This document shows positions 1 through 58,275 of a stretch of 64,000 nt of DNA, piece by piece. Position numbers and translations under genes: made by a program. Positions within the stretch are counted from its first letter, which is position 1. Each line of letters opens with the position of its first letter. The notes beneath the pieces were generated by a model. The model did no database searches. It was not told the DNA's origin and worked only from the letters and a program-made list of their open reading frames with translations. Source of the stretch: Blasia pusilla (Eukaryota); assembly GCA_050084515.1 (NCBI GenBank), contig CM114271.1, forward strand, positions 2,108,001-2,172,000, in the 5' to 3' direction.

Positions 1-1954
1 CTCTTTGTACTTCCCCTCAATCGCATGTTTCCTCCACCACCCATGAATTTCTTCTTGGCATTCCATGGCCTCTTTCAAGGTTTTGCTATCCTTGCAGCGT
101 TGGAGTAGAGTGACATGCTCTGTCCTCTTATTCTCCTTGATGCAAGATTTGCTGTAGTGGGTCATAGATTGTTGACAATGGAAAGCATCCAACCTTTCTC
201 TCTTCGGTTGAACCTCCCCACCCCAAAACACTTCCCTGATAGCAATCCACCCAGGTTGTGCATTGTCCGCCATGAACCCATAAATTTCCGGAGGTGGCCT
301 TTTTTTTTCCTTCACCACCTCCAATAAGAGTAACCAACACATCTTCAAACTGCCAACGTCTTCTGCTTTTACTTCACAGAAAAATATAGTTTTGAGTCCC
401 TTCTCCACATAGTCATAAACCTGAGCACCCATTGTCAACCATCCGTTCAGCACTCTGTAGCAAATATCAAAGCTTACCCAGCTCCCGTAAAGATCTTCCC
501 CTTCCCTCATTCGATCTATAAGATCGAGGCCACTCGACGGACCTGTCATTGACATTTTGAAGTCATAGGCCGTGGATCCTTCGCCTCCCTGGCCCATGAA
601 CTGCCATCTCTAAATGAATGGAAATCTGGAGTTTGCCCTGATTATTGCAATGGCATCCATTCCGGCCCTCTTTCCATCTAGTACCTGTATTTGACTCAGC
701 AAATTCCGGAAGCATTCAGGATCAGCGAGAGATGCGAGATTTTCCCAGAGTTGTTTCTCCTCAACAACCGTGATCTCGCCTTGTCTAGGGATTCCAAGAA
801 ATTGTTCACAAATTTGTGATGTTGTTGTTAGCTTGATCACTCCAAGCTTTGAACCCGAGAGTTTCTGAAGACCTCGGCCACTTTCTTCGCCACATCCTCC
901 TTGATGTGTCTCTCAATTGCATCGATCACAGGATGAGTGTGGGAGCCAACATGAACTACTAGCCTTGTGTACTCTGACGTGGAGCCCAAGTCGTGGACAA
1001 TGAAAAATATGTATGCAGGACACGCTCCAACGCAAAAAGGGGATGCTTGACAATTAGGTCATCGATGGCCTCCCGGAGGTATGGTGGCATCAACCTCATA
1101 TGGAGTTTATGCATTCTTGGGGGGGAATTGCGACATATTGACCTGCCCGTTGCACTCTAGATAGGGGCATGCTAGACTTCTACACTCTAAGGCTCCAACA
1201 CATTGGCGGCGGGAGACAATCCAGGACCATCTAGAATTGAAGCACTAGTCCGTTAAAGCCTGCACCATCGATGACAATCAGACTTTCTGTCCATACCCTT
1301 CAAGCGTCCTCCATCTTTCTTTTGAGCAGGAGCAGCAAGTGGAGGCAACTCAAAAATATAATTACCATCGTACGTGGACGGCAACTCGTCGAAAAGAATG
1401 TGCTTGAACATTTTCAAGGCGAGAGACGATAGCAAACTATTGCCTGATACTCGTAAGAGGAATGAGTAGGCGGACAGAGGGCCCGGTTGGTGTCCGACCG
1501 ATCCACTGAGGTTGACAACAGCGGGAATTTCTTCAGGAAGTACAACATTGTAACGAACGTGTGAAGTTGGAGTCAATGTCGGATCTATTGAGCTAGGAGT
1601 TGCAAACGTAGAGCTCGGTGCATTAGGAAATTCTCGACCGTCTACTTGGGAAACTAAGGAATTCAGAGGCAAGCCGTAAACTCTGTATTGACCATTTGCT
1701 AGAGGTAGGAGATTCCATACTTTACGGTCTTCAATCACTGGCTGGATTGTCTCACCTATTATGTCCTCCGTACCATCCACCCTAACATCCTTAGACACAA
1801 AGATGGTTCCAATTGGGAGAAGAAATCGAACTGAGAGAAAATTTTCATCCACTGGTATGAAAGACTCACGAGCTTGCGGTCGAATGATTTTGGATTGAGG
1901 AAGGGCCGCTAGATGACTGCCACAAGTGAGCTTCACATAGTTGTCCATTCCCAA
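1..1954 (-). pseudogene. MULE/Mutator-family DDE transposase, disrupted, 3' part runs off window
   Basis: Manual translation of 609->1 is open: WVSFD (D at 466-468) ICYRVLNGWLTMGAQVYD..TIFFCEVKAE..YGFMADNA (D at 265-267)..RERLDAFH. This matches the MULE D..D..CxxH layout. Upstream lie FELPP..GMD..HRW, a Cys-rich segment and VHVGSHTHP (GCM/WRKY-like Zn domain). There is an in-frame TAG at 610-612 and frameshifts. Confidence 0.8.
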
Positions 1955-2020
1955 AAGATTCCACTAGGAGGAGACAGAGAATAAGAATGAGGATAAGAGT
2001 GGGTATGGGAATGAGAATGT

Positions 2021-2030
2021 CCAATTTATA
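2021..2030 (-). promoter_or_regulatory. Putative TATA box of the transposase gene
   Basis: TATAAATTGG on the - strand about 70 bp upstream of the transposase ORF, followed by a CT-rich leader. Confidence 0.4.
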
Positions 2031-2441
2031 GTGAATAGGGACTCAGATTCTCCTGATAGAATTTGACTGACAAGATGAAGTTTGGTAGGTGAGATTGTCT
2101 AACATGATGGGTTTAATTCTGTTGCAACCTGTCAGAGTCCGATGGGTTGCAGAATTTGGGAATCAGAGACGTGGGTTGCGAAGCACCCAGTTCCGTTTTT
2201 TTTTTCCTTGTCCCAATGCAAATTGGAAGCTGTCGGAGTTGGTTGGGTTGGTACCCCCTTCATGCCGACCAATGGTCTTTTGAGACGATTTTGCTAGCAT
2301 CAAACACGAGACATCGCTTGCATTTGCTAAGGTAACTAATTGTTGGGGACTGTTACGGGATTGTCCAACTCAGGGTAGACCTTGGGTACCCGCGCGACCC
2401 ATTGAGGATTACAAGAGGTTACCCGAGGGATAGAAAAGAGT

Positions 2442-2735
2442 GCAACGTGTCTGTAACTGATGAGTTGCCTAGGTACCTTGCCTATTACCCCAAGATGAGG
2501 GAAGCGTGCAACCCGTCGGCCTGCGATAGGTTGCGCAAGTGCCTCGCCTTGTAATGCTTACATGAAGGAAGCGTGCAAATCGTCGGCCTCCGACGAGTTG
2601 CATAGGTACCCCGCCTTGTTATCCCAAGACGAGGGAAGGGTGCAACCCGTCAGTCTTCGATGGGTCGCGCGGGTACCTTGCGTTCTTCCCCCAAGACGGC
2701 GGAGGCGCGCAACCTTTCAGACTCCGACGGGTTGC
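2442..2735. repeat. ~67-bp tandem array (about 4.5 units), each unit carrying the 27-bp palindrome
   Basis: Palindrome-like copies begin at 2442, 2508, 2575, 2642 and 2709. Confidence 0.85.
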
Positions 2736-2878
2736 TTGGATAGTTCGGCTATGACGGATGCCTCCAACCGGTCGGAGACCGTCGGGTTGTGGTTTTCACG
2801 TCTAGACCTCCATAACGGCCTACACGTTGCCGTCGGAACGACGATGCGATCCAATGGTCAGTACAACGGCTAAAAAAT

Positions 2879-2886
2879 TATAAATA
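2879..2886 (+). promoter_or_regulatory. Putative TATA box of the ParB-MTase cargo gene
   Basis: TATAAATA about 190 bp upstream of the ATG at 3076, followed by a telo-box-like TAGGGTTT. Confidence 0.45.
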
Positions 2887-3075
2887 GGCTAGGGTTTGCT
2901 CATTTCAGGTTTTCTGTTTCGCGATCTCGATTGCTCTTCAGCGCAGCAGCGGACCAGATACCAAGGGGCGCTTTACACGGCGACTCATCACGAGATGATT
3001 CAAGTGACTCATCAACGCGACTCATCGTGCACAGAAAGTAATTTCGTTGTCGAGGAGGTGGCATTTTCGGGAACA

Positions 3076-6000
3076 ATGACGAGGAAAAAAACTCAAGCAA
3101 GCAAGGTTGGGAGCTTCACTCCCAAGTCCATGACTCCTGCATCACCATCTCCAAGGCCTCGTTCGGCCAATGAGATAAGGCAGCAAGAGATCGAGGAGCG
3201 TGAAAGGGAAGCAGAGATGCACACACAGGAGCTTCTTGCAGAACGTGTTAAGGAGGCGATTGAAAAATAGAACGCAGAGGCTGAGGCGTCGCAGGCCTTG
3301 AAGAAAAGGATCTCCGAGGAGAAGCGTGAAAAGAAGCGTGTGGACGCGTCGGTGAGGAGAGCAGAATTGGAAAAAGCTTGAAGGAAAAAAGAGATTGCCA
3401 TTGAAGAAAGCTCGGCCCGTCCAACCAAAAGTGTTGAGATGAAGGAAATGTCTCCGATGAAGTCCGGGGACACAATCAATATAAAATCGGCTGAGGAAAC
3501 GGGCAAAGTTCAAGTGACGGACGATGAGGTCATGAGGACCGCCAGTGTGGAGATGGTGGATATCTCTGAAGAAGCAGGAGAGCGGTCTTCCTTGTCTCTT
3601 AGCCCGGCGGAAGAACATCGACCTCTATCGCATTGACGAGTTTCCACAGGACTTGCCAACTGCTATCCCAGACCAGTTGGCGTGCCAAGGCAACAACCCA
3701 ATCTTCGAGCGGGTAAGATACGATCTTTGTTCTTTGAGTTATGTGAAGGCCCATGTTGCAATTCATTGTAGTTTATTGACCTTTTCCCCGTTGTGACACG
3801 TGGTAAAGCAGATGGCACTGATGGAGGGCCAGAACGCCCCAAGAATTCCACTTTGCCGATTGCGGACAATGGAGTAGGTCCGCGAAATTCAGTCTGACGA
3901 GGATATTGCAAAGCTGAAATAATCGGCAACGACAACATCCTACGTTGACAGCTTCCCTCCGTTCTATGTCAACCTTACGATAAACATGGAACCCAAGCGC
4001 TGGTGACGGAGGAGGACTTGGAGGCGCTCGACACATTCTGGAGGATGAGAGATCAGGAATTCACAAGGGCGATTGAGGGGACGGAATTCAGCTGGATGCG
4101 GAACCTGTATTTCTTCATCTAGGATGGAAACCACAGGTTCATGGCATGGACCCAGTTTGCAAAGGAGCGCCAAAACTCATTGGAGGCGTATTTTTGCGTG
4201 AAGGCAGTCGTGCTACATCCATACCCTCATCACATGGCGACGGTGGAGATGGCCTTGCATACCATGAACACTTAAGTTTCCTCTTCCTTTATTTTGATTG
4301 GTGCTAACCGTTGGACTCCGACGAGTTGTTTAACTAGTGGTAACAAAACTCGTCGAAGTCCGACGAGTTGCTTGACTGGATGCTATTTTTTGGATGTTTT
4401 TGGCCGAATGCAACTCGTCGGAGTCCGACGAGTTTCTTGACTGAACGTTGTTTTTTGGATTTTTTTGGCCGAAAGCAACTCGTTGGAGTCCACGAGTTGC
4501 TTGACTGGCCGTTGTTTTTAGGATGTTCTTGGCCAAAAGCCACTCGTCGGAATCCGACAAGTTGCTCAACTGGCCGCTGTTTTAGGATGTTTTTGGTCGA
4601 AAGCAACTCGTCGGAGTCTGACGAGTTGCTTGACTGGCCGCTCTTTTTAGGATTTTTTGGCCGAAAGAAACTCGTCGGACTCCGACGGGTTACATTCGTC
4701 GGCATGGGAAGGTGATCGGAGTAGGGGAGCTTGATTTTTGGCGTCAAATTGCAGCTTTACTTGAAATTGCGCAACCTGTCCAACTTCGACAGGTTGATAT
4801 GTTCACTTTTCTCGCGAAGACCACTCTCTCAATACAAATTATCTGACAACCCGTCGGAGTCCGACGGGTTGAAACTAGGCAATCACAAATCTGAATGCAA
4901 TCCGTCGGACTTCGATGGGTTGCAAAATTTAGCTCGTAGCTACCATTCCAACCATGAGGTGTGACGACCTGTCGGAGTCTAACGGATTGCAGGAACCCAT
5001 ATAGCTCGCAAAATTTCTTATATTGAGTTTGGATGCGCAGGATTGTATCCGAGGGGAATGTCATCCACCATTGGATCCAAGATTGCGATCGGGTGAAGAA
5101 AGTGTTAACGACGCACCCGGCAGAGTACAAGGGGTTCTTGGGCAACGCCCTTGTAAATGAGATGCTAACGAAGGGGGCTCAATTTATTTTTTTTTAAAAG
5201 AAAGACTTGGGCAAATACATTTATTTCCCAAGATGCAGCCGTGACAATCCTTTGCTGGTCGAAGATAAAAGCCGCCAAGAAGAGCGCTTCATTGGAGCTG
5301 GAGCAGAGGGAGAAAATGTATGTGTCTGAGCATGCTAAGTTCATCCAAGCTGCAGTATCTGCAGTTACGAAGTACACTGCAAGCAAGATGCAGCGCTACA
5401 TTGCCATTCTCAACCCCAAACTTGGCCCCGATTTCTACAAGGAGCTGAAGGCGATAATCAAGTGCCAACGGAAGAGGGATGAAGATCCGCAAGGTCGGAT
5501 TGGGGAGAAAGTGTCTCTCGACCGCGTCCATCAATTTGCCTTGCCTGGAATTACGGAATTCAGGAGAATCCGACTGATGAAAATCAGTCTCGAGGGCACA
5601 GAGGCCCAAGAGAGGGCGGCACACCATCCTCTAGGTGTCTCTGATCCAATGATCTCCCACTGGCTCTCGTGAATGGTCATTCTGGGACGCGTTGCGGCTT
5701 CTCCGGAAGTCCATGCTCGTGGGTCTCTAAGCGGAGCTGAAAAAAATAGAGCCAATTTTGGAGGAAGCAAACCTGGAGAGTGCTGAAGATTTTGAACTTG
5801 GGCTAGATGACATGCGAGACAAGCCCATAAAAAACCCAGGCTTCAGGACGATGTTCAAGGATCACATCCTCCCTCAAGCAGACCTTGATGAAGAAATAGA
5901 GGCGAAGAAAAGGGATTTCGCAAAGAAAAAGCGAGATCTTCAGGAGCAGGCGGCCGATGTATCTTGAGTAAGAGCTGCCCAACGCATGGTGTTCAGACAC

Positions 6001-8208
6001 CTCGTCCATTGTAAGAATGCAGGTACGTGGCCAAAAATACCGGTAGCCTATAAATTGTGGGCTTCTCCGCCTGATGGAGAGACATTTTCCATGTACGACA
6101 TGGAGATGGCTCAAAGCATGTCCGACTGGGAGGTGGAGAATTGCCCGATGTGGCTGGACTTCAACAACCATGAGGACATAACCAAGAAAAATCTACGCGT
6201 GCTCTATGATGCAGTGGCCGCAGGTAGGGACGACATTCCCAATTTCGTGTAGCTTGAAGACTTTTTTGAAGGAGATACGGAGGAGCAACCCATCGAGACA
6301 GCGGAGTTGGTGTCCAAGGTCGTCACCGCCAAGGACAAATCTACAGCGGGTCTCAAAGCCAAGGCGAGGGGATCGAAGAATTCCGAGGCCGAGTCTTCCC
6401 AAAAAGAGGCTAAGAATTCAAGGCGAGAGGCGGAATCGTCCGGGCGAGCGGGGAGAGAGGGTCGGACCAGGTCCTCCGCAAAAAAAACTCCACCAGAGTG
6501 TGAGGTAATAGAGACCCCAATAAGCCGACCGCAGACTCGGGAGAAGCGGAAGCGAGAGGCGCCAGGTTTGTCCCACGGAGTAGACCAGGATGTGGAATAC
6601 ACTCCATCATCCTTGGGAAGACATAGGGAAACAACGACCCGGACAAGCGTCATCATTCACTGCACGAATCTTCTGGATGAGCTGAAAAGTTTCAGTTCCC
6701 AAGCATCGATACCCTCCATCGACAAATTGACAACGATGGGACGGAAGCTTCAACAAAATGGGCACGCTCCATGGACGGTCTATGGGGAGGTCGAGGAGGT
6801 GGCGATGGATCTCCTTGTCGCTGATTTTCCCTCGGGGTTGCGCTTGTGGGAGGAGAATCCGTCCGACGGTTTCCCAGACTGGAATGTCCCTCTTTCTTAT
6901 GACCAGATCGCGCTCCTGTTTTCCTTTGCATACGCTTATCTCAGTGACAGGGGCTGTTTCTTGGTTTTGACTGGAAGGAGCGAGGACGAGCTCTTCAACA
7001 TGCAGTGCGTCAAGAGGTTGCTGAAGTGGAGGACGGCGCAATCGTGGGTCATCAAGAACGAGTACCCACTCCGATCCGCGACGAGTCAAATTCGGGTAAG
7101 GGCTCTAAATCCATATCCAAATTTTCTTGCTCCAACTGGTTGCATCTCTGCATGCAACCCATCGGATTGTCTGAGCTGGAGACTTCGGTGGTGCAATCCG
7201 TCTAAAAGCGACGGCTTGCAAATTTACCGCAAGTCTCCATTGGGTGAATGCAACCCGACGGGTTGCAAGTGCTTATGCTTTTCCTTGTGTTTCTGGAATG
7301 ATGCAACCCGTTTGAATATGACGGGTTGCTCTTAGCCAACCATGGGCTGCTCTAAGCCAGCATTCTGCCGCCTTCCGACGGGTTGCTCATGGCAAAAAAA
7401 ATCACTAACACTTGTAAAACAACCCATTGGACTCCGAAAAGTTGCTCCAATGTTAGGACTATAACTAAGTTCTCTGGAGTTAAGCGAAGTTCTTTGGGAA
7501 CGAGTTGCACATTGTGTCACCATTCTGATAGTATACCTTTCTTGTTGTTGCATACTGAAATTAGCTCTTTCTTGTTGCTGACATTTTTTGCAACCTGCTT
7601 CTTTACACATGGACCACTCCTTTGTCTACTATTTTGTAAGGCCCAAGCACAACTTCCAAGTGTTTCAGATCCTCGATCCAGTGGATCCATGCTCTGATGG
7701 GTACAGCTTAGATAGTTTATACAATTCTCCCCCGAGAATTTACATGGAAAATGGTACCCCCTTACTTGGAGGAAGGGAAAATTTGTCGGCATTGATGCAA
7801 ACGCTCATTGAGCTCTGCTCAAGGCCGGGTGACTTGGTGTTCGACTTAGTGGGCCTTTCAGGGGCAAGTATCAGAGGCGCTTGGCAGAGTGGCAGGAACA
7901 TTCTCTACCTTGAGGGAAGGCAAGAACTGTTTGACCTTTGCAAAGAGGCAAAGGCAGATTACGACAGGCTAGTTGGGGCGTAAAACTCTCCTCCAAAGCC
8001 GATAGCTCTGGTTCCAGACCCACCATTGGTAGTGACACCATCGTCACTTCCCATGATTCCCATAATCGGGAGGGCAAGGCTGACAGTAATTCTGGAGGAG
8101 CTCTCAAACGATGACGAGTGAGTTCAAAGAACTCAAGGACCCAGCTTGACTATAGCATTTTGGAGTAGGGATTTATTTGATGACGAGGCAGAAGAATTCA
8201 TAGAATAG
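3076..8208 (+). pseudogene. Spliced cargo gene: coiled-coil N-terminus, ParB/Srx-like domain, helical region, beta-class N6/N4 DNA methyltransferase-like domain
   Basis: Inferred exons are about 3076-3712, 3812-4271, 5041-7095 and 7594-8208; two splice sites are mutated. Exon 2 reads IPLCRL..VR..FYV..FFI*DGNHRFMAW (DGNHR at 4123-4137). Exon 3 ends with MDLLVADFPSGL..PDWN..YAYLSDRGCFLVL (motif IV-like, 6805-6834). Exon 4 has LMQTLIELCSRPGDLVFDLVGLSGASIRGAWQSGRNILYLEGRQELF (motif X-I-II-like). ORFs at 5758, 5986 and 6307 share one frame broken by single TGA/TAG stops. Confidence 0.75.
4345..4693. repeat. ~64-bp tandem array (about 5.4 units) inside cargo intron 2, each unit with the palindrome
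   Basis: GCAACTCGTCGGAGTCCGACGAGTTGC-like copies at 4345, 4410, 4475, 4539, 4603 and 4667, with near-identical spacers. Confidence 0.9.
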
Positions 8209-9288
8209 ATCAAATATACAGTTCCGAGCTTCCTTTGGATGTAATAAAGAACAAGATTTTTTCAAACGATGGTGGTGTTTGTAAAAGTTTGTTGAATATC
8301 TTTTTTAGTCTTGTCGATTGTGATCGTCTATGTACTCCGACACTTCATATTGTAACCCGTCGGATTGCCACAGGTTGCAACTTTTCACTTTTTGACCACT
8401 GCACCTTTTTAACCACTTCTAGGCAACCTGTCGCATTCTGACAGGTTGGCTGTGTGAGTGATTGGACTCTTTCCCTGTTAGTCCAACTTTACAAACATTC
8501 TGGCGGACTTCTTCACTTTGGCACCTTCCCCTAGTTTCGTCAAACAAGTCTTAGGCTTCCTCTCTTCTCTAAGACGTGTTGGATTCCTACTACCTGGCTG
8601 AGGACATGATGGTGTCTCCAAGGACGGAGCACATATTGATACTAGATGGGTGTCACCTTGCAGAGCGTACAAGATTTATTGTCGAGGAAGGCGATGGGAC
8701 TCAAATCAGGTTACATGGGACCGTTATGGTGTACCTAGGGGGGTGCCAAGGCTCTCGAATTCGCCAACATTTTCGATCCCCGTCTACAATCGGCGAGAGG
8801 AGATCACAAATTGTATCTCAGGACATTCCTTTTGTACAGGAACCTAGGAGAGTAAGGTGTAAATTTGTAGATGACGAAGCTGAAGAAATCATGGACTAGA
8901 TCAAATGTACATTCCCGAGCTTCCTTCGGATGTAATACAGGACAAGATTTTTTCAAACGATAATGGTGTTTGTAAAATTTTGCTGAATATTTTTTTTGGA
9001 CTTGTCGATTGTGTTCGTCTAGCTACTCAGAATGTTTATTTTGCAACCCGTCTGACTCCGATGGGTTGCAACTTTTCACTTTTTCACCAGTGCAACTTTT
9101 TAACCATTTCCAGGCAAGCTGTCGGATTCTGACAGGTTGGCTGCTTGAGTGATCATACTCTTTCCCTATGAGACCAACTTCTGAGGCATTGTGGCGGGCT
9201 TCTTCACTTTTGGCTTGTTCCCCTAGTATTGTCAAACCAGTTGTAGGCTTCTTTTCTTCTCTAAGACATGTTGGATTCCTATTGCCTG
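8171..9288 (+). repeat. ~425-bp direct duplication (8171-8597 / 8862-9288) of the cargo gene's last codons and 3' region
   Basis: FDDEAEEFIE* versus VDDEAEEIMD*, then collinear sequence at an offset of about 691 bp, including two palindromes per copy. Confidence 0.85.
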
Positions 9289-9959
9289 TCGGATTGCCAT
9301 TTCGAATTCCCAACGAGTTGGATCTTCGTGAATGCAGGGTGGAATGGAATCACTTCTCAAAATCTTTCCTTTGTTATGGTGAGCTTGCTTGCAAGGGGTG
9401 CAAGCCATCTGATTCGGACGGGTTGCAAGAGTTGCAACCTGTAAAATTCCGACGGATTGGGAGGGGTGCAGCTTCTCGGTTTCTCATATTTAGGATCTGA
9501 ATGAAGGGACATCAATTCCTCTTTACTCCAGACAGCTAACAATCTGTTGGTTCAATTATCGTCTTCTGTGTTCACATTTCACAAAAATGGTCTTTATTTG
9601 AACCTTTCATTGAGATGAGATTGCTACTTCTGGTCACAATATTTGCCAATGGTCCTCCAAAAAAAAAAGCCCTGGGCACAGCTTACTGTAGACTGAGACA
9701 GGCAATGTGAAAAAACTTAGGCTCACATGGAGAGTGATGGGAAAATGTTTGTAGTGGTCTTATGATATCTACTAGTTTTTCGCCCCCTGGAAAAAGGAGG
9801 TTTCTTTAGGCCCAAACGTGGACCACTACCTACTCTCTTCTAAAGATTTCATAAATTTGAAAGCAAACAAAAATTTCAAATATGTCAAAAAGTTTTGAAG
9901 AGAGGAGGCGGATTTGGCCCTTTTTTTTGAAGAGAGACTCTCCTCTCTTCCTCTCTCCT

Positions 9960-11980
9960 ACCAGAATACCAGCCCTCCTCCTAAACTCATGGTAATCATC
10001 CATGGGTGGTCCCTCCAAGTGCTGAAACAACCGCTTCCAAGCCAAGAAGGGTGTAAACAATGTGGCGTTCCGCAACATCTGCATATCATTCCACGTATCA
10101 AACTCCTGAATGAAGTCCTCCAACTCAATGGTGCCCACTACACCCAATTATCGTCATGGGCCCTTCATGGCCCCATACATCCCGTCCATGTCCCAAATCA
10201 ATGGAGCTGCAACACTCGATAACAACGTAGAAGACTTGGTGTTTGGAACACCCTCGTCCTCCTCTTCATCAACCGTCGGAAGTGGAAAAGGTAGCTGATA
10301 CCTCAATCCACTCCGTGTAAAACCACCACTGTCCGCACCACGGTCCCCAACCAGGTCACCAGACAGCTTCGTGATGACCAACGCCGATGTCGCACCACCA
10401 CCAAATCACCACCACTAAGTAACCAAGTGACGTCGATGTCGATGTACTATTCTAGCTCTACTAGCTATGGGTGTGGGCAACCTAACCTATCATCACCACA
10501 AGAAGCCTCCCACGGTCTACTCGTCATCACTCCAGTCTCACTGTGAGAGAAACAAATGAAGTTTGACTGGTCATCACTCCAACCTCACTACCCGTAGCAC
10601 ACAGGAGTAAAACTACTCTGGAAATCAGCATCAGCCCTAACAATGGGCGCCCAAGCAAGAAGCAATGATGGAGGGGATCCAAATACATGAAGTCCAACAA
10701 CAACCCTCCAATCGCAACTGGAAGTACAAAATGAAAATCAAGGTAACACAATCCACCAAACGTGGTGCCCCCTCAATCCACAGAACCAACCACACAATTC
10801 TAACGCAATGGTTACTCTGCCGGTGGTCGATGACGTGCTAGTCGCACTTGCAACACCTGAAAATATCACCTGCATAGAGAGTCCACACCGTACTATGCGC
10901 TAGAGGTCCATCAACCAAAAACCCGAGATGCATAAAAGCGCCTAATGCATCTCCAAATAACACCAAATGAGCTACATCAGTGTGTACACTGACATAGTTA
11001 AGTACTCAGCAGTTAAGCATCTTCCAGGCAGAATAGCCCAAAGATGGGTGACCAGTTATGCAACACTCAACTCACAAATCCTGCAAAAACTGCCTCACGC
11101 CCAAGCAAGCAAGCTTGCTTGCGCCTTGCTCCTTGCTCCTTACTTCGCCTCAAACGCCCACTCGCCCCGAGCTACCACGAGTTGCCTCGAAGCCTCGAAA
11201 CAACATGCTCGAGACATGCCCGTTCTTGCCCCGTTCGCCACGCTTTGCTATGGAGAGAGGCCCAGACAGGGCGCCTCCAACGGGATAGGCGTCTCCAACA
11301 ACAGACGAGTCACCAACCAACCAGCCCCTCCGATCTGCTGTCCACCATAGCCACACCTTGAGCTAGTCCGCAAAATTTTGACCAACGATAACTCCACAAA
11401 TCCTCGACCAAAATTGAATCTATTTCAACGAGAATTCAATTGGTCACCATATTCCATACATGCGTATTGGCAACATCGCAAGCACAATGGGTGCTAGAGA
11501 GCGGGATCGGATGTTGTGCGAATCCACATCGTCATACAACATACATCGTTGACATACCAGACTCACATACATACATAACATAGAGGAGAGCATACACAAA
11601 CACAAGTGTACCACAACTGAAATCCGTGAAAGATTCTATACGTGTGTAAAACACGTATAGAATCACATACAATCGAGCCAAACCCACTCCACGATGGGAG
11701 AATCCAGGTCGAAGCTTTCGAAAACCACCATAGCCAAGAGCTCTACTCACTACCAAGGCTAACTCCCAACGCAACACGCTCAACTCAAAGAACTAACTGT
11801 TCTTTGAGTACACTCCACACTATACCCTCCAACCTAAGGGTGGGCCCTATTGGAAAAGTCACCCTCAACGGAGTAACCCCCAACCCTATGTATGAAACCG
11901 CATCCCTACCTACACACTAAGGCCCTACATAAGGTATGACCTCTACTAGCACACTATACTCTATGACATAATCCGTATGG
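9960..11980 (-). mobile_element. Ty3/gypsy remnant: LTR-like segment (~11530-11980), leader and gag fragment
   Basis: Gag-like ELEDFIQEFDTW..FTPFLAWKRLFQHLEGPPMDDYHEF at 9970-10147. The stretch 11530-11720 is reverse-complement similar to LTR sequence at 14050-14280. Boundaries are approximate. Confidence 0.5.
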
Positions 11981-11989
11981 TCATGACAC

Positions 11990-14350
11990 GGATCCTACAA
12001 CGAGCCAGATGGTTTTGGTAGGAGGGGACATATATGTTGCAAGTTTGGGAGGATGGTAGAGTGCGTGTAGTGCCCCATCCTTCGTAGAGAGCACGTTTGG
12101 TGTGGTATGCCCACAAGGAGTTGGGTCATTTTGGAGTGAAGCGCACATACAACTTGCTCCAGATACAACATTGATGGCGAGGCATGCAGACTGAGGTTCA
12201 ACAGCTTGTTGCCATGTGCATGGTGTATGATCAAGTCCGAGCATCGTTCAATGCTCCGACTCCACACTTGCATCCACTTCCGATCATGGGTTTAGGTTAT
12301 AGATGGAGTTTGGATTTTGCAGGACCTTTGCCTTTGACGGAGCGCCATAGTCATTATGTGTTGTTGATGGTTGAGCACTTCTCGAAATGGATAGATTTGG
12401 TTGCATTGCCTGACAAAGCAAGTGAGGGAGTAGCATATGCCTTCCTAGATTGAGTTCTGAGTCATTACGGCCCACCAACTAAGGTGTGACACAGCAAGGT
12501 ACAGAGTTTTGCGGGGAGTTTCAGGCCTTGTGTGATCAGGCGCTGATCAACCCACACACCACTTCGCGTGATCATCCTGAGGCAGATGGACTAGCGGAGA
12601 GGGTTGTGCAGATGGTGAAGAGAGGATTACGCAAGTATGGCTTGCACAGAGGTCACCTAAGAGATTGGGACCTTCAGTTGCCGTGGTTGGCGATGGGATA
12701 CAGATTCAGCAGGCAGGCATCCTTAGCGTCTTTCTCACTGTACTTGCTACTTTATGGCTGAGAGCCAGATTTACCTACGGCCATTCGTCGAGATATTGGT
12801 GAGGTGTTGAACCTTGATGACCTTAATGTATGGATGCGAGCATGTTCTTAGAGGGCTGAGTTGTTTCGGAGAGTGATGCCCATGGCGTTTAAGAACTTGG
12901 CGATTGCGCAGCATCGGCATACATTGAGGTATGTGACTATTCGGGGAGGTGGTTATCGACCTACTATCCGGAGGTTTCATTAGGGAGACTATGTCTACTT
13001 GCAACAAACGGCACCTACCATGTTGGATGTGACTGGTGGGTGCACCATCTTGAGAGTGCATGAGATTTTGCCATCTGATGTTCTCTTATTGGAGGGACGC
13101 GATGGTATGGTTTGGAAGGACCATATGCATAACTGTGCACCATGTCATCTTCCAAACATTGACGATACAGTTGATTCAAGCTTAGCAGTAGTTCCTACAT
13201 GCTTGCGGTGTATGTTGTGTGGTTCGGCCCGTGGCGCAACCACTATGCTAGTCTGTGATGGGTGTTTCAGAGGATGGCATATGGCATGTCTCACACCACC
13301 TCTTACTAGGGTTCTTGAGGGACGATAGATGTGTCCTAGATGTACATAGAGTAGGGAGTTCTAGATTCCAACTTGTGTTTGTGACATGGATGACAAGAAG
13401 GCAACTAACGATGGGGCCACATGAGCACTCGGCCTTTTTGCTCTTAGCGTCCGACAGATGTATGTCATTGTAGGTAGGGATAGATGGCTATCTCGAGTTA
13501 GAGGGACCTAACCACCAGCTAGGGGGAAAATTGGAGATATTTTGGTACTTCTTGTCTCATTTTTTAGATACCATGAGTTAGCATGGAACCGTGTGTGTTT
13601 GTGTGTATGTTTGGCGATAGCGATGTATATTGTATAGCGATGTGTATATGCACGACAATTATCACGATTTTTTTTTATATATCGGAGAGATCTGGTAGAG
13701 TTCCTTTGCAAGTAGAGGAGGACAGGCTCAAGAGGTCGAGGATGACCTGCAGAAGTCACATGTTTCCCCTTCGTTTTGGCTCATTTGGAGCCATATAGAG
13801 AAACTTACTATTCGGGTAAGTTTCCATTTAGAGCATAGTTGAATTTCTACTTTGGGAAGTAACCCTTGACCTGCTACAGTAGGTCAAGAGCCAAGGAGGT
13901 GACCTACGAACATAGGTTACCGAGGAGAGAGCTTGGGAGAGGGAAGGGGGTATACCTCAAGGAGAGAGAGCTTGAGAACTCATTCTCTCTTTATTGAACC
14001 TCTTGGCACAAGATGGCGGAGTTATGGTCCCTTCCCTTGTGAGTGTAACCCAAACCTCTCATTAGGAGAGTGGGTTTGGTTTGACATTGAGAGAGAGTGC
14101 ACACATTTGAGAGTTATGGTGTTGAGAAAGATTGGATCTACTTGATTTAATTGGAGATATTTTGGTACTTCTTGTCTCGTTGTTTGGATACCATGAGTTA
14201 GCATGGGATCGTGTGTGTTTGTGTGTATGTTTGGTGACAACGATGTATGTTGTGTAGCGATGTGTATGTGCACGATAGCTTGAAGATGTGTAGTTGAAGG
14301 TATGAGATCCAAACTTGGAGTGGAACCCTTGGAGGATATATGTAACATCA
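11990..14350 (+). mobile_element. Ty3/gypsy 3' remnant: integrase with C-terminal PHD finger, PPT and 3' LTR
   Basis: HHCC zinc finger (GHFGVKRT..C), core WSLDFAGPLP..EHFSKW..QGTEF..HPEADGLAER and PHD at 13209-13346. PPT AGGGGGAAAA at 13521-13530. LTR-like TG(13532)...CA(14350) with an internal ~130-bp repeat (13531/14151). Many stops and frameshifts. Confidence 0.85.
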
Positions 14351-18129: not shown

Positions 18130-18965
18130 ATCTCTCTCTCTCACAATTGCAACCAGGGCGCTGGGTCTATGGTCGCAAGGCTACAACAGGCACTACTTAA
18201 TGAGTACAGTCTCTCACAATTGCAACAACTGCGATAACCTCAGACTAGAGTTCCCTGATAGAGCTAGCTCATCCAAGGCCCTACCTTCATGGGTCTATGG
18301 TCGCGAGGCCACGACATGCACTACTTAATGAGTACTCTCTCTCTCTCAAAATTGCAACAACTGCGATAACATCAGATTAGAGTTCCCTGATAGAACTAGC
18401 TCTTCCAAGGCCCTGCCCTCATTGGTCTATGGTCGCAAGGCTACGACAGGCACTACTTAATGAGTACACACACTCTCTCTCTATCCATTGGGGATCCCAA
18501 TCAGGTAAAGTAAATAGTGTGGTGAAGAGTTTCTTGGCTGACACTTGGAAGCTCCGCACCGACACGTTGTTCGGTCAGCACTCACACTTTATGAGAGTGT
18601 CTCCCTCCTCTCATATGGTACCTTCTTCACTTGCTCCTTTCTCTACACCCATCCCAGTCTCAAGCACGGGGCGCGGGGTCTATGGTCGCAAGGCTTCGAC
18701 AGGTACTACTTAATGAGTACTCTCTCTCTCTCTCTTTCTGAGAGTGTCTCCCTCCTCTCATATGGTACCTTCTTCACTTGCTTCTCTCTCTACACCCATC
18801 CCAGTCTCAAGCACCGTCCAACCAGGGCGCGGGGTCTATGGTCGCAAGGCTACGACAGGCACTACTTAATGAGTAGTGTCTCTCAAAATTGCAACAACTG
18901 CGATAACATGAGACTAGAGTACCCTGATAGAGCTAGCTCTTCCAAGGCCCTACGCTCATGGTCAT
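18130..18965 (+). repeat. Modular repeat array (~130-bp units) interleaved with a dispersed, probably LINE-3'-end-derived fragment
   Basis: GGTCTATGGTCGCAAGGCTACGACAGGCACTACTTAATGAGTAC-like module occurs five times (about 18163, 18291, 18424, 18677, 18832). 18510-18640 is similar to the reverse complement of 33100-33220. Confidence 0.8.
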
Positions 18966-33592: not shown

Positions 33593-33780
<188 letters not shown>

Positions 33781-36548: not shown

Positions 36549-39500
36549 TGTGGAAAACTGCTAAACAAGCATAATTGGTGGAAAACGGCTCTCACACATA
36601 CACCCCACCATGGAGAACGAAATTTGCAATGAGAGAATGAGTGGAGGCTGGTTCCCTTCTCAATTATATAGGGTATGTACAAGCAAACCTAACCTTAACC
36701 TTAACCATAGTCTCGAGTTAGACTAACTGTGATTAACTAACCTAGTTAAGATAATGTGTTTTAGCCTGACTAACCAAGATTAAGCTTTCCTACTTAGTTG
36801 AGTACCAAATATAGATTCAGGTGTCTCATGATTGTAACTCAATCTTCAATACTCCCCCTCAAGCTCATATCAATATCTGTAACACCTAAATCATTTTTAA
36901 ACATCTCAAACTTATCTCTAGACAATGCCTTTGTAAAGATGTCATCAATTTGCTTATGATTATTAGCAAGCTTGATGCTACTAATTTTTTCTGCATATAT
37001 TACACTAGGTCCTAAGTTACTAACACCAATCTTAACAAGTAATCGATGAAGCCACACCGCCTCACATGCTGCATGAGTTGCTCCTCTGTACTTAGCCTCT
37101 GTTCAAGATAAAGCAACTATAGGTTGCTTCTTTGAAGCCCAACTTATAGCTGCGCTTCCCAAAATAAATGAGTAACCAGATGTGGAGTGTCGATCACACA
37201 TATTTCTTGCCCAATCAGCATAAGTGTATCCCTGTAATTGAAAACTCATAGAAGGTTCAAATTGAAGCCCGAATTGAATAGAGAATTTTAAATACCGCAT
37301 AATCCTCCTCACGGCATCAAGGTGAGGTTTTCGAGGTGCTTGCATAAACTGGCTCACTAGGCCAACAACATAGCTCAAATCTGGTCTGGTTATAGTTAGA
37401 TAGATTAAACTTCCAACCATGCGCTTGTATATATTAGAATCTGCAAGCAACTCTCCTTCATCCACTCTTAGCTTCACACTCTGGTCCAACGGTGTAGAGA
37501 TTGGCTTACAAGCCGTCATACCATATTTTGAAAGCATATGAAGAGCATATTATCGTTGTAGTAACCACATGCTCTCTCCAACCTTGATAAACTCTATATC
37601 AAGGAAGTACTTGAGTTCTCCCAAGTCCTTCATATCAAATTCTGCTTGTAACTTAAGCTTGACTTATTGTACCATTTCTTCAATACTGCCAGTAATCAGG
37701 AGATCGTCAATATACAACACAATGAGAACTGTATGATCTTTTCCTCTCAAGAAATATAACCAGGAGTGAGAATCACATACCCTAAAACCCAATTCTTGTA
37801 GGACCTATGTAATCTTGCCATACCAAGCTCTTGGAGCTTGTTTGAGTCCGTATAGAGCTTTCTTCAACCTGCATACGCGAAATGGAAACTTGGGATGCTC
37901 GTATCGAGGTGGTTGAGTCATATATACCTCCTCGTATAGATCTCCATTCAAGAAGGAATTCTTGACGTCCATCTAATATAATCTCCACTTCTTACTTACT
38001 GCAACTGCAACCACTGTTGTCATAGTCGCCATCTTTGCAACAGGGCTAAATGTTTCTTCATAATCAATGCCATATTGTTGTGCATAGCCCTTAGCCACCA
38101 ATCTCGCTTTGTATCTATTAATTGTACCATCTTGATTACGCTTGATTTTGTAAACCCATTTGTAACCAATAGCTTCCTTACCATAAGGTATATCAACCAG
38201 CTCCTATGTCTGTTGATGTCTTAATTCAGCAAGCTCTTCCTCCATAGCTTCAATCCATTCGACTTTACTTGCAGCTTCTTCAAAGCATTTCGGCTCTTGT
38301 TCTTGAAGGGTAGTCATTATATATGCATGATGTATCACAAAAAAACCTTCATTTATGAATCTATGAAGTGGATGTATAACTCTACTTGATCTACGAAGTT
38401 GTTGTTTAGAGGTAGATGTCTCTGACATTTGACTCGAGCTTTGACTAGTGTCAACACATTGAATACGTACGCTTCCCATCCATGGACTCATAGATTTAAC
38501 TGATGAATCTAGGACCTCTCCTAATCCTGCACTAGTACTTGGGGGAGTTGAAGATAATGTCTGTCGGTTTACAATCATATTCTCCCCCTCAATAGACGAG
38601 TTTAGAGGTAGAATAGGCTCAGATGGAGCATACCATGACTTTAGCTCATCAAAGACAACATCCCGACTAATAATAAGCTTCCTAAATGATCGAATGTAGC
38701 ACTTGTACCCCTTAGTTCCATCAGCATAGCCAATGAAGATACATTTTTCAGACTTATTTTCAGACTAATTTTTGACGTATCTCTGAAGGAACATGGGCAT
38801 AACAAATACAACCAAATATTTTCAAGAAAGAAAAATCAGGCTTACTTCTTGTGAAGACTTCAAATGGAGTTTTATCATGAACTCCTGTTGTTGGAGTTCG
38901 GTTGATTAAGAAGAGTGCACATGCTATAGCCTCTGCCCAATACACCTTAGGCATGTTCTTCTCATTTAGCATAGCTCGTGCCGCTTCAGCAATATGTCGA
39001 TTCTTCCTCTCAACCACTCTATTTTTTTGTGGAGTGTAACGGCAAGTCACTTGACGTTGGATGCCATTCTGAAGTAAATAGTCATCAAACTCTGTTGAAA
39101 GATACTCTCCTCCTCCATCACAACGCAATTTCAGAATGTGTTCTCTAGTCTACTTCTCTACTAGAACTCTGAATGTTTGGAACACTGAGAATACCTCTGA
39201 CTTGGCTTTTAGAAAGTATACCCATATATACTTAGAGAAGTCATCAATAAATGAAATAAAGTACTGGTAATCTCTAAGGCTATGTTGTGATGCCTTCCAC
39301 ACATCAATATGGATCAACTCCAATATCATGGATGCTCTTCTTCCTTGCTTAGGAAAAGGAAATCTAGCTTGTTTTCCAAATTGGCAAGCAAGACATACCT
39401 CTAACGTAACAGGACTTGCTAATTTTAGGGAGTCCTATTACTATATTAGATGATGAAAGACTCTGTAATCTTTGAAGATTCATATGTCCAATTCTTTTAT

Positions 39501-41790
39501 GCCACATTTAGATCTGTGACTTGTTGGCCGGTTTGACCATACATTTATGTTTGAATCTCTGGCATAGAAATATCTAATTTGAGTATTCTGCCACATCAAG
39601 TTCCTTTGGCTATCATAGTCTAATCATCCATTTTTTCAATGAAACAACCATCTGCGTTAAACTTCACTTTCAAGAGCACAAAATGTTTAAACTGCATTAA
39701 ACATTGTCAAGAGCACAAAGACCATCAAATGCTATTGGAACTTTACCGGTATGCGTGATATGATGTTGAGTGTCATCTCTTATGAGCACAATTGCAAGAT
39801 CTTTCATCGGCTCCAAACTACTGAACCATTGAGCTTGTGAGATCATGTGATTTGATGCACCAGAGTCAATGTACCAATCTACTGTCGAGTCTTTCTTGAC
39901 CATTGCTCCCATATGATGATTCTTGGAAGTGGAAGTGGGAAGTGGTGTATTAATTAAAAAAATTAGATTTGATTTTCTCTTTGTGATTTTTTTAGTCATG
40001 ACCAAGAGATGCTCCGTTTGTGAATGTTGTTGTTCTTGGTATTGCTCTTGGTGTTGTTGCTCCACATAGTTTTATTGTTGTAAGGCTCCTGTTCTCATAT
40101 CTGCCTTCTTCTTGAAGCAAAGCTTTGCATAGTGACCCTTTATCGCACAGTAATTGCAAGATCCAGGGACCCTCTGCTGTTGACCTCCACCCCAACGGTT
40201 TCCACCATCATCACCTTGTGATTCTGTTTGGTACCGGTTAGTAGTTGAATGAGTGACGTTATATTGAGTCCCTTTTCCTCCATATGCTTGATATCCACCA
40301 TGACCACGGAAGTTTCTATCACGACCCCTGCCTCTGTTTAATTTATAACCTGCAAATAGTGCACTCTCTTGCAGACTAGACGAGCTATCGCTGCCTACTA
40401 GACGTATCTCTTCATTGATTAACAGAGGCACTAACTCTTGAAAGGTTGGATACTTCTCTCTCACAGAGATAGAGGTCTCAAAGGACTTATAATCTTTTGG
40501 AAGGCCTTGAAGAGTGAACAAAATCAGATCATCATCTTCTACTGTCACTCCAATGATATTCAATTGATCAACAATATGTCTGATACTCAAAATATAATCA
40601 TTGATGCTCTACGATTCTTTCCTCACTTCGTTCAATTGATGTTTCAATTGAAGCTTTCTGGTCTTTGTAGATGTCTGGAACAACTTTTCCAATGCATCCC
40701 AGGTCTCCTTCGAAATATCAACATCTTGAATGTAACCTATTATTGGCGAACTGATCGTTATTGAAATATGGTGGATTACTTGTCTTTCGCGTTTATTCCA
40801 GACGCAAACATTCAAGTCTTTTGAGTCACCTTCTCGCTTGGCCTTATCATCTGTGACAAGCTCCCATAGTTCTTGACCCATGAGAAATTGTTTCATGTGA
40901 AACTTCCAGACGTTGTAATTCTGCTTATCTAGCTTCTCGCCTGTGATTGTTGTTGAGGAATACTCCATGACGAATGATTTCACTTACAAAAATGTAATTT
41001 CAGGATCTCCTACTGGTCCAATTGAAGCATAGATCATTCCTACACAGAAATTGACCTGAAATTTTCCAAAATTGATCAAATGTATGAAAGAACTAGTCGA
41101 AATTGGCCTGTAGAGAGCAAACTCCACAACTTTTCTTCACTAATTGCACTTTCCTACATTGAAATTGCTACAGCAAGAGCTGAGAATGTCAGAATCGAGC
41201 AATTTTGGATGCGTTGGAAAGCTCTTGGCGAGCTCTACAAGAAGGCTAAAATAAGACCTAGATGCTGTTCTAGCTACTGCGGACCCAGATGGCTTAATCG
41301 AATGGAAAAGCCTTCAAAAATACCTCAAAGTTTTTATCACCGTAAAAGCTCCACCTGAAATCTACACCCACTGAGCTCTGAATAAAACTTCCTACTCCCA
41401 AACTGAAAATTTCTCCTTCTCTTGCCTCTCTTCTCTCCTCAAACACCAAGGATTTCAAGTGATGTTCTCCTATTGCTCTGATACCATGTGGAAAATTGCT
41501 AAACAAGCATAACTGGTGGAAAATGACTCTCACACACACATCCCACCATGGAGAACGAAATTTGCAATGAGAGAATGAGTGGAGGCTGGTCCCCTTCTTA
41601 ATTATATGTACAAGCAACCCTAACCCTAACCTTCACCATAGTCTCGAGTTAGGCTTCTTATGATTAACTAACCCTAGTTAAGATAATCGTGCTTAACTGA
41701 CTAACCAAGATTAACTTCCCTATTTCGTGTGAGTACCAAATATAGGAGTTCAGATGTCTCATGAGTTTGATTGTAACTCAATCTTCAATA
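36549..41790 (-). mobile_element. Full-length, decayed Ty1/copia LTR retrotransposon
   Basis: LTRs at 36549-36851 and 41487-41790. TSD GATTA at 36544-36548 and 41791-41795. PBS TGGTATCAGAGCA (41474-41486, iMet type) and PPT GAGGGGGAG (36852-36860). Order gag (CNYC..GH...C), protease (WYIDSGASNHM), integrase (RCDGGGEY), RT (GSLIYLTITRPDL), RNaseH. Confidence 0.97.
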
Positions 41791-57216: not shown

Positions 57217-58275
57217 GAGGTGTTAACAGACCAGGATATAGAGTTTCACCCGGAGTTTCAGGCCTTGTGTGATCAGGTGTTGATCGACCACCACAACACT
57301 TCGCGAGATCATCTTGAGGCGGATGAACTAGCGGAGAGGGTTGTGCAGACGGTGAGGAGAGGATTAGGCAAGTATGGCTTGCAGAGAGGTCATCTAGGAG
57401 ATTGGGACCTTCAGTTGTCGTGGTTGGTGATGGGATACAAATTCAGCAAGGAGGCATCCTTAGCGTCTTTCTCACCGTACGTGCTGCTTTATGGCCGAGA
57501 GCTAGATTTACCCGCGGCCATTCGTCGAGATGTTGGTGAGGTGTTGAACCTTGATGACTTTGATGTATGGATGCAAGCATGTTCTCAGAGGGCTGATTTG
57601 TTTCGAAGAGTGATGCCCATGAGAACTTGGCGATTGCGCAACATCGGGATACATTGAGGTATGCGACTATTTGGGGAGGTGGTTATCGACCTACTATCTG
57701 GAGGTTTCATCAAGGAGACTATATCTACTTGGAACACACGACACCTCCGACGTTGGATGTGACTGAAGGGCGCACCATCTTGAGAGTGCGTGAGATTTTG
57801 CCATGTAGTGTTCTCTTATTGGAGGGACGCAATGTTATGGTTTGGAAGGACCATGTGTGTAACTATGCGCCATGTCACCTTCCTAACATTGACGGTACAG
57901 TTGATCCTAATTTAGCAGTAGTTCGTGCACACTTGCGATGTATGTTGTGTGGTTCCGCCCGTGGTGCATCCACTATGCTAGTCTATGATGGGTGTTCGAG
58001 AAGGTGGCATGTGGCATGTCTGACGCCATCTCTCACTAGGGTTCTTGAGGGACGATGGATGTGTCCCAGATGTACATAGGGTAGGTAGTTCTAGATTCCG
58101 ACTTGTGTCTGTGACATGGATGACAAGAAGGCGACTAACAATGGGGCCACATGAGCATCCGAACTTTTTTCTCCTAACGTCCGAGAGATGTGTGTCATGG
58201 TAGGTAGGGATAGATGGCTATTTGAAGTTAGTGGGACCTAACCACTAACTAGGGGGGCGATTGGAAATATGTTGG
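57217..58275 (+). mobile_element. Second gypsy integrase-PHD remnant with PPT
   Basis: EVLTDQ..TSRDHLEADELAER..CMLCGSARG..WHVACLTP..WMCPRCT*. Collinear with 12480-13545. PPT AGGGGGG at about 58251. Confidence 0.88.

Follow-up and report, generated by a model that had tools for sequence, protein, structure and literature searches.

The DNA examined here is a 64,000-nucleotide stretch of Blasia pusilla (contig CM114271.1 of assembly GCA_050084515.1, positions 2,108,001 to 2,172,000 of the forward strand; hereafter the window, with positions counted from its first letter), which holds near its left edge one decayed copy of an abundant repeat family and, within that copy, 29 occurrences of a 27-base palindrome. 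From the distribution of these palindromes we infer, with a probability of roughly 0.45, that they represent putative dense, family-specific clusters of binding sites for a protein encoded by the element itself. The palindromes would then be the family-specific cis-sites of an abundant DNA transposon, multiplied through tandem-repeat formation in each non-coding segment (the 5′ region, which is divergent, the 3′ region, and the spacers or introns between coding blocks), and a sequence-specific protein of the element would dock on them at high density. The binder could be the N-terminal DNA-binding part of a transposase resembling those of Mutator-like elements (MULE), or a methylase-like accessory protein. 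Binding to dense clusters would allow such a protein to distinguish its own family from the remaining genome, and its effect might be relief of silencing, activation of the element promoter, or assembly for transposition.

Form and confinement of the palindrome

The motif has the consensus GCAACCCGTCGGA-N-TCCGACGGGTTGC, a total of 27 bases with 13-1-13 symmetry. A preceding sequence-only reading of this DNA had reported about 25 copies within 2124-9460, and a motif scan scored on the 26 specified bases of the 27-mer bears this out: 26 copies were found at up to 7 mismatches and 29 at up to 9, together spanning 2124-9460, while in 30 shuffles of the region the looser cut-off yielded 0.1 copies on average and never more than 1. 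The same scan found no copy at up to 9 mismatches in the remaining 56.6 kb of the window. With no more than 3 mismatches allowed, the 27-mer gave 8 matches versus none in 100 dinucleotide shuffles. Every start listed earlier was recovered within one base (2764 for 2765, 7419 for 7418), and direct reading confirmed a perfect 12-1-12 copy, CAACCCGTCGGAGTCCGACGGGTTG, at 4847-4871. The additional copies are located at 2225 and 2442 (8 mismatches each), 7360 (6 mismatches) and 4475 (with a 1-base deletion), accompanied by a half copy at 7154 and an isolated half-site at 1381. The 29 copies occupy 7.3 kb, and the local density ranges from 5 to 20 per kb.

Each palindrome contains two inverted CCGAC cores, and CCGAC/GTCGG is accordingly frequent inside the element (5.15 per kb) compared to the DNA to its right (0.53 per kb at 9480-64000). 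The maize TnpA 12-mer begins with CCGAC, and inverted pairs of it are bound best. The motif was absent from three public collections: viral_contigs gave no match to the exact, non-degenerate palindrome, and metagenome_contigs and the prokaryote genome_contigs gave none to a Y/R-degenerate 25-mer. No Rfam family was matched at E ≤ 0.1 in 1-12000. Among the matches listed in a literature search for the motif letters, all looked unrelated by title and start of the abstract, and a search for literature on liverwort or Riccia transposons gave nothing about the family described here.

Clusters, arrays and spacers

The palindromes are grouped in four clusters located between coding blocks. The features are, from left to right:

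1-1963, minus strand: decayed transposase-like block, running off the left window edge
2124-2790, no strand: cluster 1, 8 copies (2124, 2225, 2442, 2508, 2575, 2642, 2709, 2764)
3067-4275, plus strand: coding block A, with a charged, coiled-coil-like N-terminus, in-frame stops and a frameshift
4303-4990, no strand: cluster 2, 11 copies including the perfect 12-1-12 copy (4847-4871) and singles at 4771, 4897 and 4964
5238-7098, plus strand: coding block B, three segments homologous to two Riccia hypothetical proteins (28-33% identity)
7154-7445, no strand: cluster 3, the half copy at 7154 and 5 copies (7193, 7250, 7303, 7360, 7419)
7639-7983, plus strand: last coding block, C-terminal half of a beta-class N4/N6 DNA-methylase-like domain (...LIELCSRPGDLVFDLVGLSGAS...)
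8352-9460, no strand: cluster 4, in the 3′ non-coding region, with pairs at 8352/8423, 9043/9114 and 9400/9434
8179-8596 and 8870-9288, plus strand: direct duplication of 419 base pairs (bp), 83% identical, one palindrome pair per half

None of the 29 copies overlaps the four blocks with homology or family support, in agreement with the almost entirely non-coding placement described before. Cluster 1 is flanked by the transposase-like block on the minus strand and the gene on the plus strand, and contains a 67-bp array of 4.1 units (2459-2735); its observed/expected CpG ratio is 0.97 versus 0.52 for the rest of the window. Cluster 2, with a 64-bp array of 5.4 units (4347-4691) and a CpG ratio of 1.26, lies between coding blocks A and B and is thereby an intron or an intergenic spacer. 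Cluster 3 falls within a candidate GT..AG intron, from 7096 to about 7640/7647, by which the methylase-like domain is interrupted, and the copies of this cluster are spaced 39-59 bp apart by sequences not detectably alike among themselves. At 7250-7266 the copy is reduced to 17 bases of perfect symmetry, GCAACCCG-A-CGGGTTGC; the middle ~10 bases of the 27-mer are missing, as though a hairpin centre had been excised. In cluster 4, the pairs 8352/8423 and 9043/9114 each have a distance of 71 bp.

Comparison of 15 spacers in all pairs revealed likeness within arrays (z 7.6-18.4), while between clusters the highest z was 3.7. Spacer likeness is thus limited to single arrays, and the earlier statement that the motif rather than the repeat unit is what is shared holds. 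The occurrence of one 27-mer in at least four unrelated contexts implies that the motif was either selected or copied on its own. Insertion of single palindromes in the manner of miniature inverted-repeat transposable elements was rejected, as the flanks show no target-site duplications. Open frames of 115-140 amino acids traverse the arrays; three array frames and two frames of the 3′ region matched no Pfam family below E 0.05.

The repeat family in sequencing reads

Public reads of the same organism were aligned to 1-12000 at a likeness of at least 80%. The genomic sample comprised 12,434,590 reads from run X13, about 1 in 100 of that run, and 98,454 of these (0.79%) match the 12-kb stretch. 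Only 230 of the matching reads are at least 99% alike, and 56,732 are under 90% alike. From 2001 to 9600, the summed two-direction depth amounts to 414-1,412 per 400-bp bin, and these bins add up to about 6.6 million of the 1,966 million letters sampled (0.34%). The family comprises at least a few hundred copy-equivalents. Bins over arrays (2001-2800, 4401-4800 and 7201-7600) have a depth of 414-641, about half of that in coding bins (870-1412). Joints that skip or repeat array units were found at 2514>2689, 2736>2690, 4871>4406, 4942>4844, 8338>8375 and 9390>9452, with 47-132 reads each, so that array length varies between copies of the family.

At all eight listed sites within palindromes (2240, 4305, 7215, 7363, 7364, 7368, 8353 and 8439) the family-majority base restores the motif, these eight being taken from the best-supported 40 of 2,423 base differences. 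The majority bases therefore indicate that the palindromes are ancestral and were nearer to the ideal form in the ancestors of the family, the copy in the window having decayed.

Other joints skip 439-486 bases (8130, 8175 or 8177 to 8617) and were seen alike in DNA reads, RNA reads and the contigs of an independent run. As this skip is found in DNA as well, it is attributed to many copies without one 419-bp duplication unit, i.e. a DNA variant and not splicing. Furthermore, reads switch strand at or beside palindromes (4396/4411, 4411/4847 and 7101/7401), which may stem from inversions that other copies have undergone between palindromes, or simply from the ambiguity of aligning self-complementary sequence. 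Long-range inverted matches are limited to palindrome against palindrome. Read breaks at 9979 and 9984, which are the basis of this assignment, suggest that the right end of the element lies near 9979.

RNA coverage was low, with 1,420 and 1,627 reads on the stretch in two runs. At 7601-9200, the RNA depth is 8-27 on the first-mate-minus side versus 0-3 on the other; assuming libraries of the common stranded type, this signal is plus-strand RNA that extends across the last coding block into the 3′ region and takes in the palindromes at 8352-8449 and 9043-9140. Between 7201 and 7600 the coverage is 0-0.4; it jumps at 7601, and RNA molecules are listed as ending at 7617 and 7761. Among the listed joints, none splices across 7096-7640, and the intron remains a candidate. 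Convergent RNA coverage drops around 9200-9600, beside cluster 4.

Decay of the palindromes

Deviations from the consensus were counted in 27 copies (2225, 4475, 7154 and 7250 were left out). The 120 deviations divide into 38 CpG transitions, 12 other changes at CpG positions, 37 non-CpG transitions and 33 non-CpG transversions; 14 of the non-CpG transitions are C6>T or G22>A in CCG context. Per site, the deviation rate is 0.23 at CpG positions versus 0.14 elsewhere, and the outer GCAAC/GTTGC bases are as well kept as the CCGAC core. The sequence-only reading had described the deviations as largely CG to TG/CA, consistent with decay through 5-methylcytosine. CpG transitions are indeed the largest class, but at 38 of 120 they form a minority, and "largely" was an overstatement.

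Proteins encoded beside the sites

Two candidate binders had been named before, the transposase and the cargo, and both are present in the form of a transposase-like fragment with an Atlas lead to MULE and a cargo gene with a DNA-methylase-like domain. As these candidates are encoded beside the sites, they were counted in favor of a binder encoded by the element.

The last 203 residues of the transposase-like block (609-1) are MULE/ZSWIM RNaseH-like by Atlas features (score 0.95, 168 of 256 shared), and the ten best family-bearing Atlas matches to the block are all MULE-related. With hmmscan, the block matched no Pfam family, and MULE (PF10551 or relatives) was not matched even at E ≤ 10. A word-seeded search among longer proteins gave no relatives of the fragment, and its AlphaFold2 model (pLDDT 40.2) was too poor for a fold search.

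Concerning the cargo, coding block A may be a separate gene or represent the 5′ exons of the cargo gene. It includes the stretch ...FFI*DGNHRFMAW... and shows a weak match to Pfam DUF1015 (E 0.0017, below the curated cut-off); PDB and NCBIfam gave no match, and no helix-turn-helix was found. We take the DGNHR stretch to resemble the phosphate motif of the ParB fold, and a ParB-like module in block A is accordingly put forward as a lead only. For block B, the only true phmmer matches among 1.84 billion representatives are proteins of Riccia sorocarpa and Riccia fluitans (KAL3687003.1 and KAL2653794.1; E 5e-12 and 2e-10), a third match being a repeat protein. Segment 6748-7098 of block B contains a motif-IV-like DLLVADFPSG followed by LSDRGCFLVL.

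The last coding block (7639-7983) matches PF01555 with E 0.006 and 17.1 bits, under the gathering cut-off of 26.7 bits. In the Atlas it scores 0.94 with 178 shared features, 27 of the 30 matches in the set carry PF01555 alone, two further listed clusters also carry PF01555, and the nearest cluster is mostly viral. Against PDB, M.RsrI (E 0.13) and DpnA (E 0.5) were obtained, and in these weak matches (E 0.13-0.5) DLVFDLVGLSGAS aligns with S-adenosylmethionine-binding motif I, which in beta-class enzymes follows the target-recognition region. Neither the N-terminal half of the methylase-like domain nor the two Riccia proteins matched Pfam. Read together, 6748-7098 and 7639-7983 would form one beta-class N4/N6 DNA-methylase-like domain split by the candidate intron. 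The canonical catalytic tetrapeptide of beta-class methylases is (D/N/S)PP(Y/F/W). By our alignment, the motif IV position is occupied by DFPS in block B and by DLPT and DLPK in the two Riccia proteins. Since this motif is degenerate, methyl transfer by the cargo protein is doubtful. Below the gathering score and with a deviating catalytic motif, the domain would not count as a PF01555 member, and by its sequence the cargo does not appear close to any named family.

The Riccia models end within a few residues of the start of the candidate intron (…SATKQFKV and …RATQFKIK versus …SATSQIR|GT). These gene models may have been cut short at a conserved intron and thereby lack the C-terminal methylase half. 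For the methylase-like core, viral_contigs and genome_contigs held no relatives; a candidate in metagenome_contigs (L001) proved to be a false match, namely a bacterial contig with an integrase gene and without palindromes. Word-seeded searches gave no relatives of the core, nor of the C-terminal block among longer proteins, and the AlphaFold model of the core (pLDDT 36.3) was too poor for a fold search.

Weighing of the binding-site interpretation

Binding by an element-encoded protein is judged most likely as the pattern matches the VANC targets in VANDAL21 and is close to the dense clusters bound by TnpA and the AtMu1 transposase. An element-encoded binder is also what the sequence-only reading had inferred, and published systems operate in this manner. 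The symmetric 13-1-13 site fits a dimer, although dimer binding as such is what we infer, and neither of the two encoded proteins can be singled out as the putative binder.

Several points weigh against this interpretation. In place of a 27-base palindrome, VANC and TnpA are known to bind asymmetric motifs of 8-10 bases, and the restoring majority bases were drawn from the best-supported differences, as stated above. Moreover, 809 genomic reads break just after 2735 with mixed continuation (agreement 0.57). The junction at 2735/2736, which follows the final unit of the 67-bp array, is not the arrangement usual in the family; DNA left of 2735 may not be joined to 2736 onward in most copies, and the transposase-like and cargo blocks may not always belong to one element. 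The MULE-like assignment of the transposase is itself a lead only, resting on one Atlas lead. The left end of the element lies beyond base 1, off the window, with the terminal inverted repeats and the target-site duplication (9-11 bp in a MULE) out of view. At mirror positions of the palindromes, 80 single changes compare to 10 complementary and 10 non-complementary doubles, and the two duplicated pairs of palindromes show 9 differences in 54 positions, which equals the rate of the whole 83%-identical duplication. Finally, the copy is dead, its coding blocks carrying stops and frameshifts. In a dead copy no constraint on the palindromes is expected, and constraint cannot be shown from a single decayed copy.

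Alternative explanations

The alternative that survives best, unlikely as it appears, is that of neutral satellites. Here, an ancestral palindromic seed would have spread by slippage, unequal exchange and hairpin-primed repair with no sequence-specific function, the arrays being selfish or neutral, tolerated in non-coding DNA and removed from exons. The variable array lengths and the halved read depth over arrays agree with this, as does the copy at 7250-7266, which lost exactly its centre as hairpin processing predicts. Likewise, the window copy shows neither a compensatory signal nor slower divergence of the palindromes. However, slippage copies whole units, whereas the clusters have only the 27-mer in common and not the spacers; four separate non-coding segments each gained the same motif, and the family-majority bases hold it nearer to its ideal form.

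A structural role appears rather improbable. The palindromes would in this case act as DNA hairpins or cruciforms, or as RNA hairpins, in recombination, inversion, replication pausing or the formation of transcript ends. Good copies do fold into hairpins well below shuffles, with stems of 10-12 bp and -8 to -14 kcal/mol (z -3.4 to -6.2); the hairpin of cluster 2, folded as DNA, reaches -14 kcal/mol (z -6). Symmetric variants exist, ACTCG...CGAGT in the array of cluster 2 and at 2575, and CCTGTC...GACAGG at 4771, 8423 and 9114. The strand changes of reads at palindromes and the fading of convergent RNA coverage next to cluster 4 point in the same direction. Yet every one of the symmetric variants consists of C>T/G>A changes at CpG or CCG sites, where chance alone would mirror the decay in about half of the cases, and complementary double changes are no more frequent than non-complementary ones (10 versus 10). 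Five of the 10 complementary doubles are the ACTCG...CGAGT variant, mostly inside the 64-bp array, and are therefore not independent events. A 12-bp stem is short by the standards of cruciform extrusion or Dicer processing, the palindromes at 8352-8449 lie within a transcribed stretch and do not end transcription there, and no Rfam family was matched.

Equally improbable is the more specific proposal that the cargo itself is the binder, i.e. a protein like the phage-type beta-class N4/N6 DNA methylases, in which the canonical catalytic motif was lost while sequence-specific DNA recognition was kept, and which may have a ParB-fold module upstream. Enzymes of this phage or bacterial type recognise short palindromes. 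Such a protein would coat the CpG-rich palindromes and shield the element from host cytosine methylation, or mark its copies. GANTC, the type of site of the CcrM and HinfI methylases, forms the palindrome centre in 13 of 27 copies. As a signal of its own GANTC was rejected: 14 of 33 sites lie within palindromes, and the 19 outside correspond to ~2.6 per kb, not above the 3.25 per kb right of the element. Because GANTC is not enriched outside palindromes, the GANTC centre gives no independent support for a methylase-like binder.

Least probable are host transcription factor sites on the CCGAC core, the dehydration-responsive element/C-repeat (DRE/CRT) core of DREB/CBF-type factors, with which the element would stock its promoters in the way that ONSEN carries host heat-shock elements: as stated above, CCGAC/GTCGG is denser inside the element than to its right, and clusters 1, 3 and perhaps 2 are just upstream of starts of coding or RNA coverage (for example at 7601, 7617 and 7761), but the conserved unit of 27 bases extends far beyond CCGAC with the outer GCAAC/GTTGC equally kept, and cluster 4 is downstream of the gene.

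Other features of the window

The window is eukaryotic and repeat-rich, with 42.5% G+C and an observed/expected CpG ratio of 0.58. Right of the element, 9600-12000 is a different high-copy repeat with much higher minus-sense RNA coverage (up to 138) and a head-to-tail joint 11988>11512, with 2 letters in between, seen in hundreds of DNA and RNA reads. Strong read breaks are located at 9979/9984, 11512 and 11618; those at 9979/9984 suggest that the repeat to their right belongs to a different family. Further to the right, the window contains a 132-bp tandem repeat (18162-18479; 2.4 copies, 87% matches), a perfect (AG)90 microsatellite (33594-33774), copia-type gag and polymerase SH3-like fragments (38204-40983, minus strand), a reverse-transcriptase fragment (43784-44470, plus strand) and a PHD-finger frame (57597-58079).

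Comparison with known systems

Among the systems compared, the closest parallel is found in VANDAL21 and VANDAL6, Mutator-like elements of Arabidopsis. In VANDAL21, the motifs bound by VANC have been amplified into tandem repeats that occupy introns as well as intergenic and terminal non-coding DNA, and these repeats are described as very dynamic (Hosaka et al., PMC5735166). Accumulation of the motif in tandem repeats of non-coding regions is also what the Blasia arrays show. The two cases share a Mutator-type DNA transposon, here by the lead described above, an accessory gene, and a family-specific motif in dynamic non-coding tandem repeats, with repeat units that differ between places and between copies. 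In contrast, the VANC motifs are asymmetric and 8-9 bases long (YAGTATTAY, AGTTGTCC), while the site discussed here is a 27-base palindrome with four CpGs. Moreover, the accessory gene is methylase-like in Blasia, and its nearest protein relatives are from liverworts, not crucifers. A relative of VANC was not seen, no search aimed at one having been made.

For TnpA and the AtMu1 transposase, binding is to family-specific motifs that are densely clustered in non-coding terminal regions; specificity comes from the density of the cluster and not from the single site, and a density of four per kb is reported as specific to cognate Spm copies (bioRxiv 10.64898/2026.08.24.746577). The Blasia palindromes exceed this figure with 5 to 20 per kb. 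Unlike the terminal or subterminal clusters of Spm and AtMu1, they fill internal spacers or introns as well. The published motifs are about 10 bases long (CCVTCGCAAA), and a CACTA transposase is not present here. Foldback-type elements and long terminal inverted repeat relatives of Mutator have ends built of tandem short repeats. They resemble the Blasia element in having short-repeat arrays in inverted orientation, a palindromic unit being the same in both orientations, but the Blasia arrays are internal and alternate with genes.

ParB proteins act as dimers on palindromic sites that occur in clusters. The ParB/parS system (PMC4738411) was used for comparison together with phage and plasmid proteins in which a ParB fold is fused to a PF01555 N4/N6 methylase (bioRxiv 10.1101/2025.10.10.680097). 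Similar to these fusions, the cargo ends in a PF01555-like domain and its upstream block has the DGNHR stretch. The ParB likeness is, however, the weak DUF1015 match only, the catalytic motif is degenerate, and the gene is a eukaryotic, possibly intron-bearing transposon gene. Eukaryotic retrotransposons that carry DAM encode Dam-type enzymes with a retained catalytic pocket (bioRxiv 10.64898/2026.05.21.726589), and liverwort MpDN4MT1 is a functional prokaryotic-type N4-cytosine methyltransferase (bioRxiv 10.1101/2021.02.12.428880). The Blasia cargo shares with both the prokaryote-type DNA methylase fold in a eukaryote; unlike the DAM retrotransposons, it belongs to a DNA transposon and has a beta-class-like domain without the canonical catalytic tetrapeptide.

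Taken as a whole, the element does not appear to be a member of any named family tested and would work most like the VANC and TnpA systems.

Implications

To our knowledge, sequence-specific self-recognition by transposon proteins has been worked out only in elements of Arabidopsis and maize (VANC, TnpA). If true, the binding-site interpretation would extend this principle to early land plants, in a family that makes up ~0.3% of the genome. The system would differ from the known ones by a longer, symmetric and CpG-rich site and by an accessory gene of prokaryote-type, methylase-like character. It would offer a directly testable pair, with one 27-base site and two candidate proteins, and would bear on the entry of prokaryotic DNA-methylase folds into liverwort genomes. 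Should the cargo be the binder, it would represent a bryophyte counterpart of VANC derived from the prokaryotic restriction-modification and partition toolkit.

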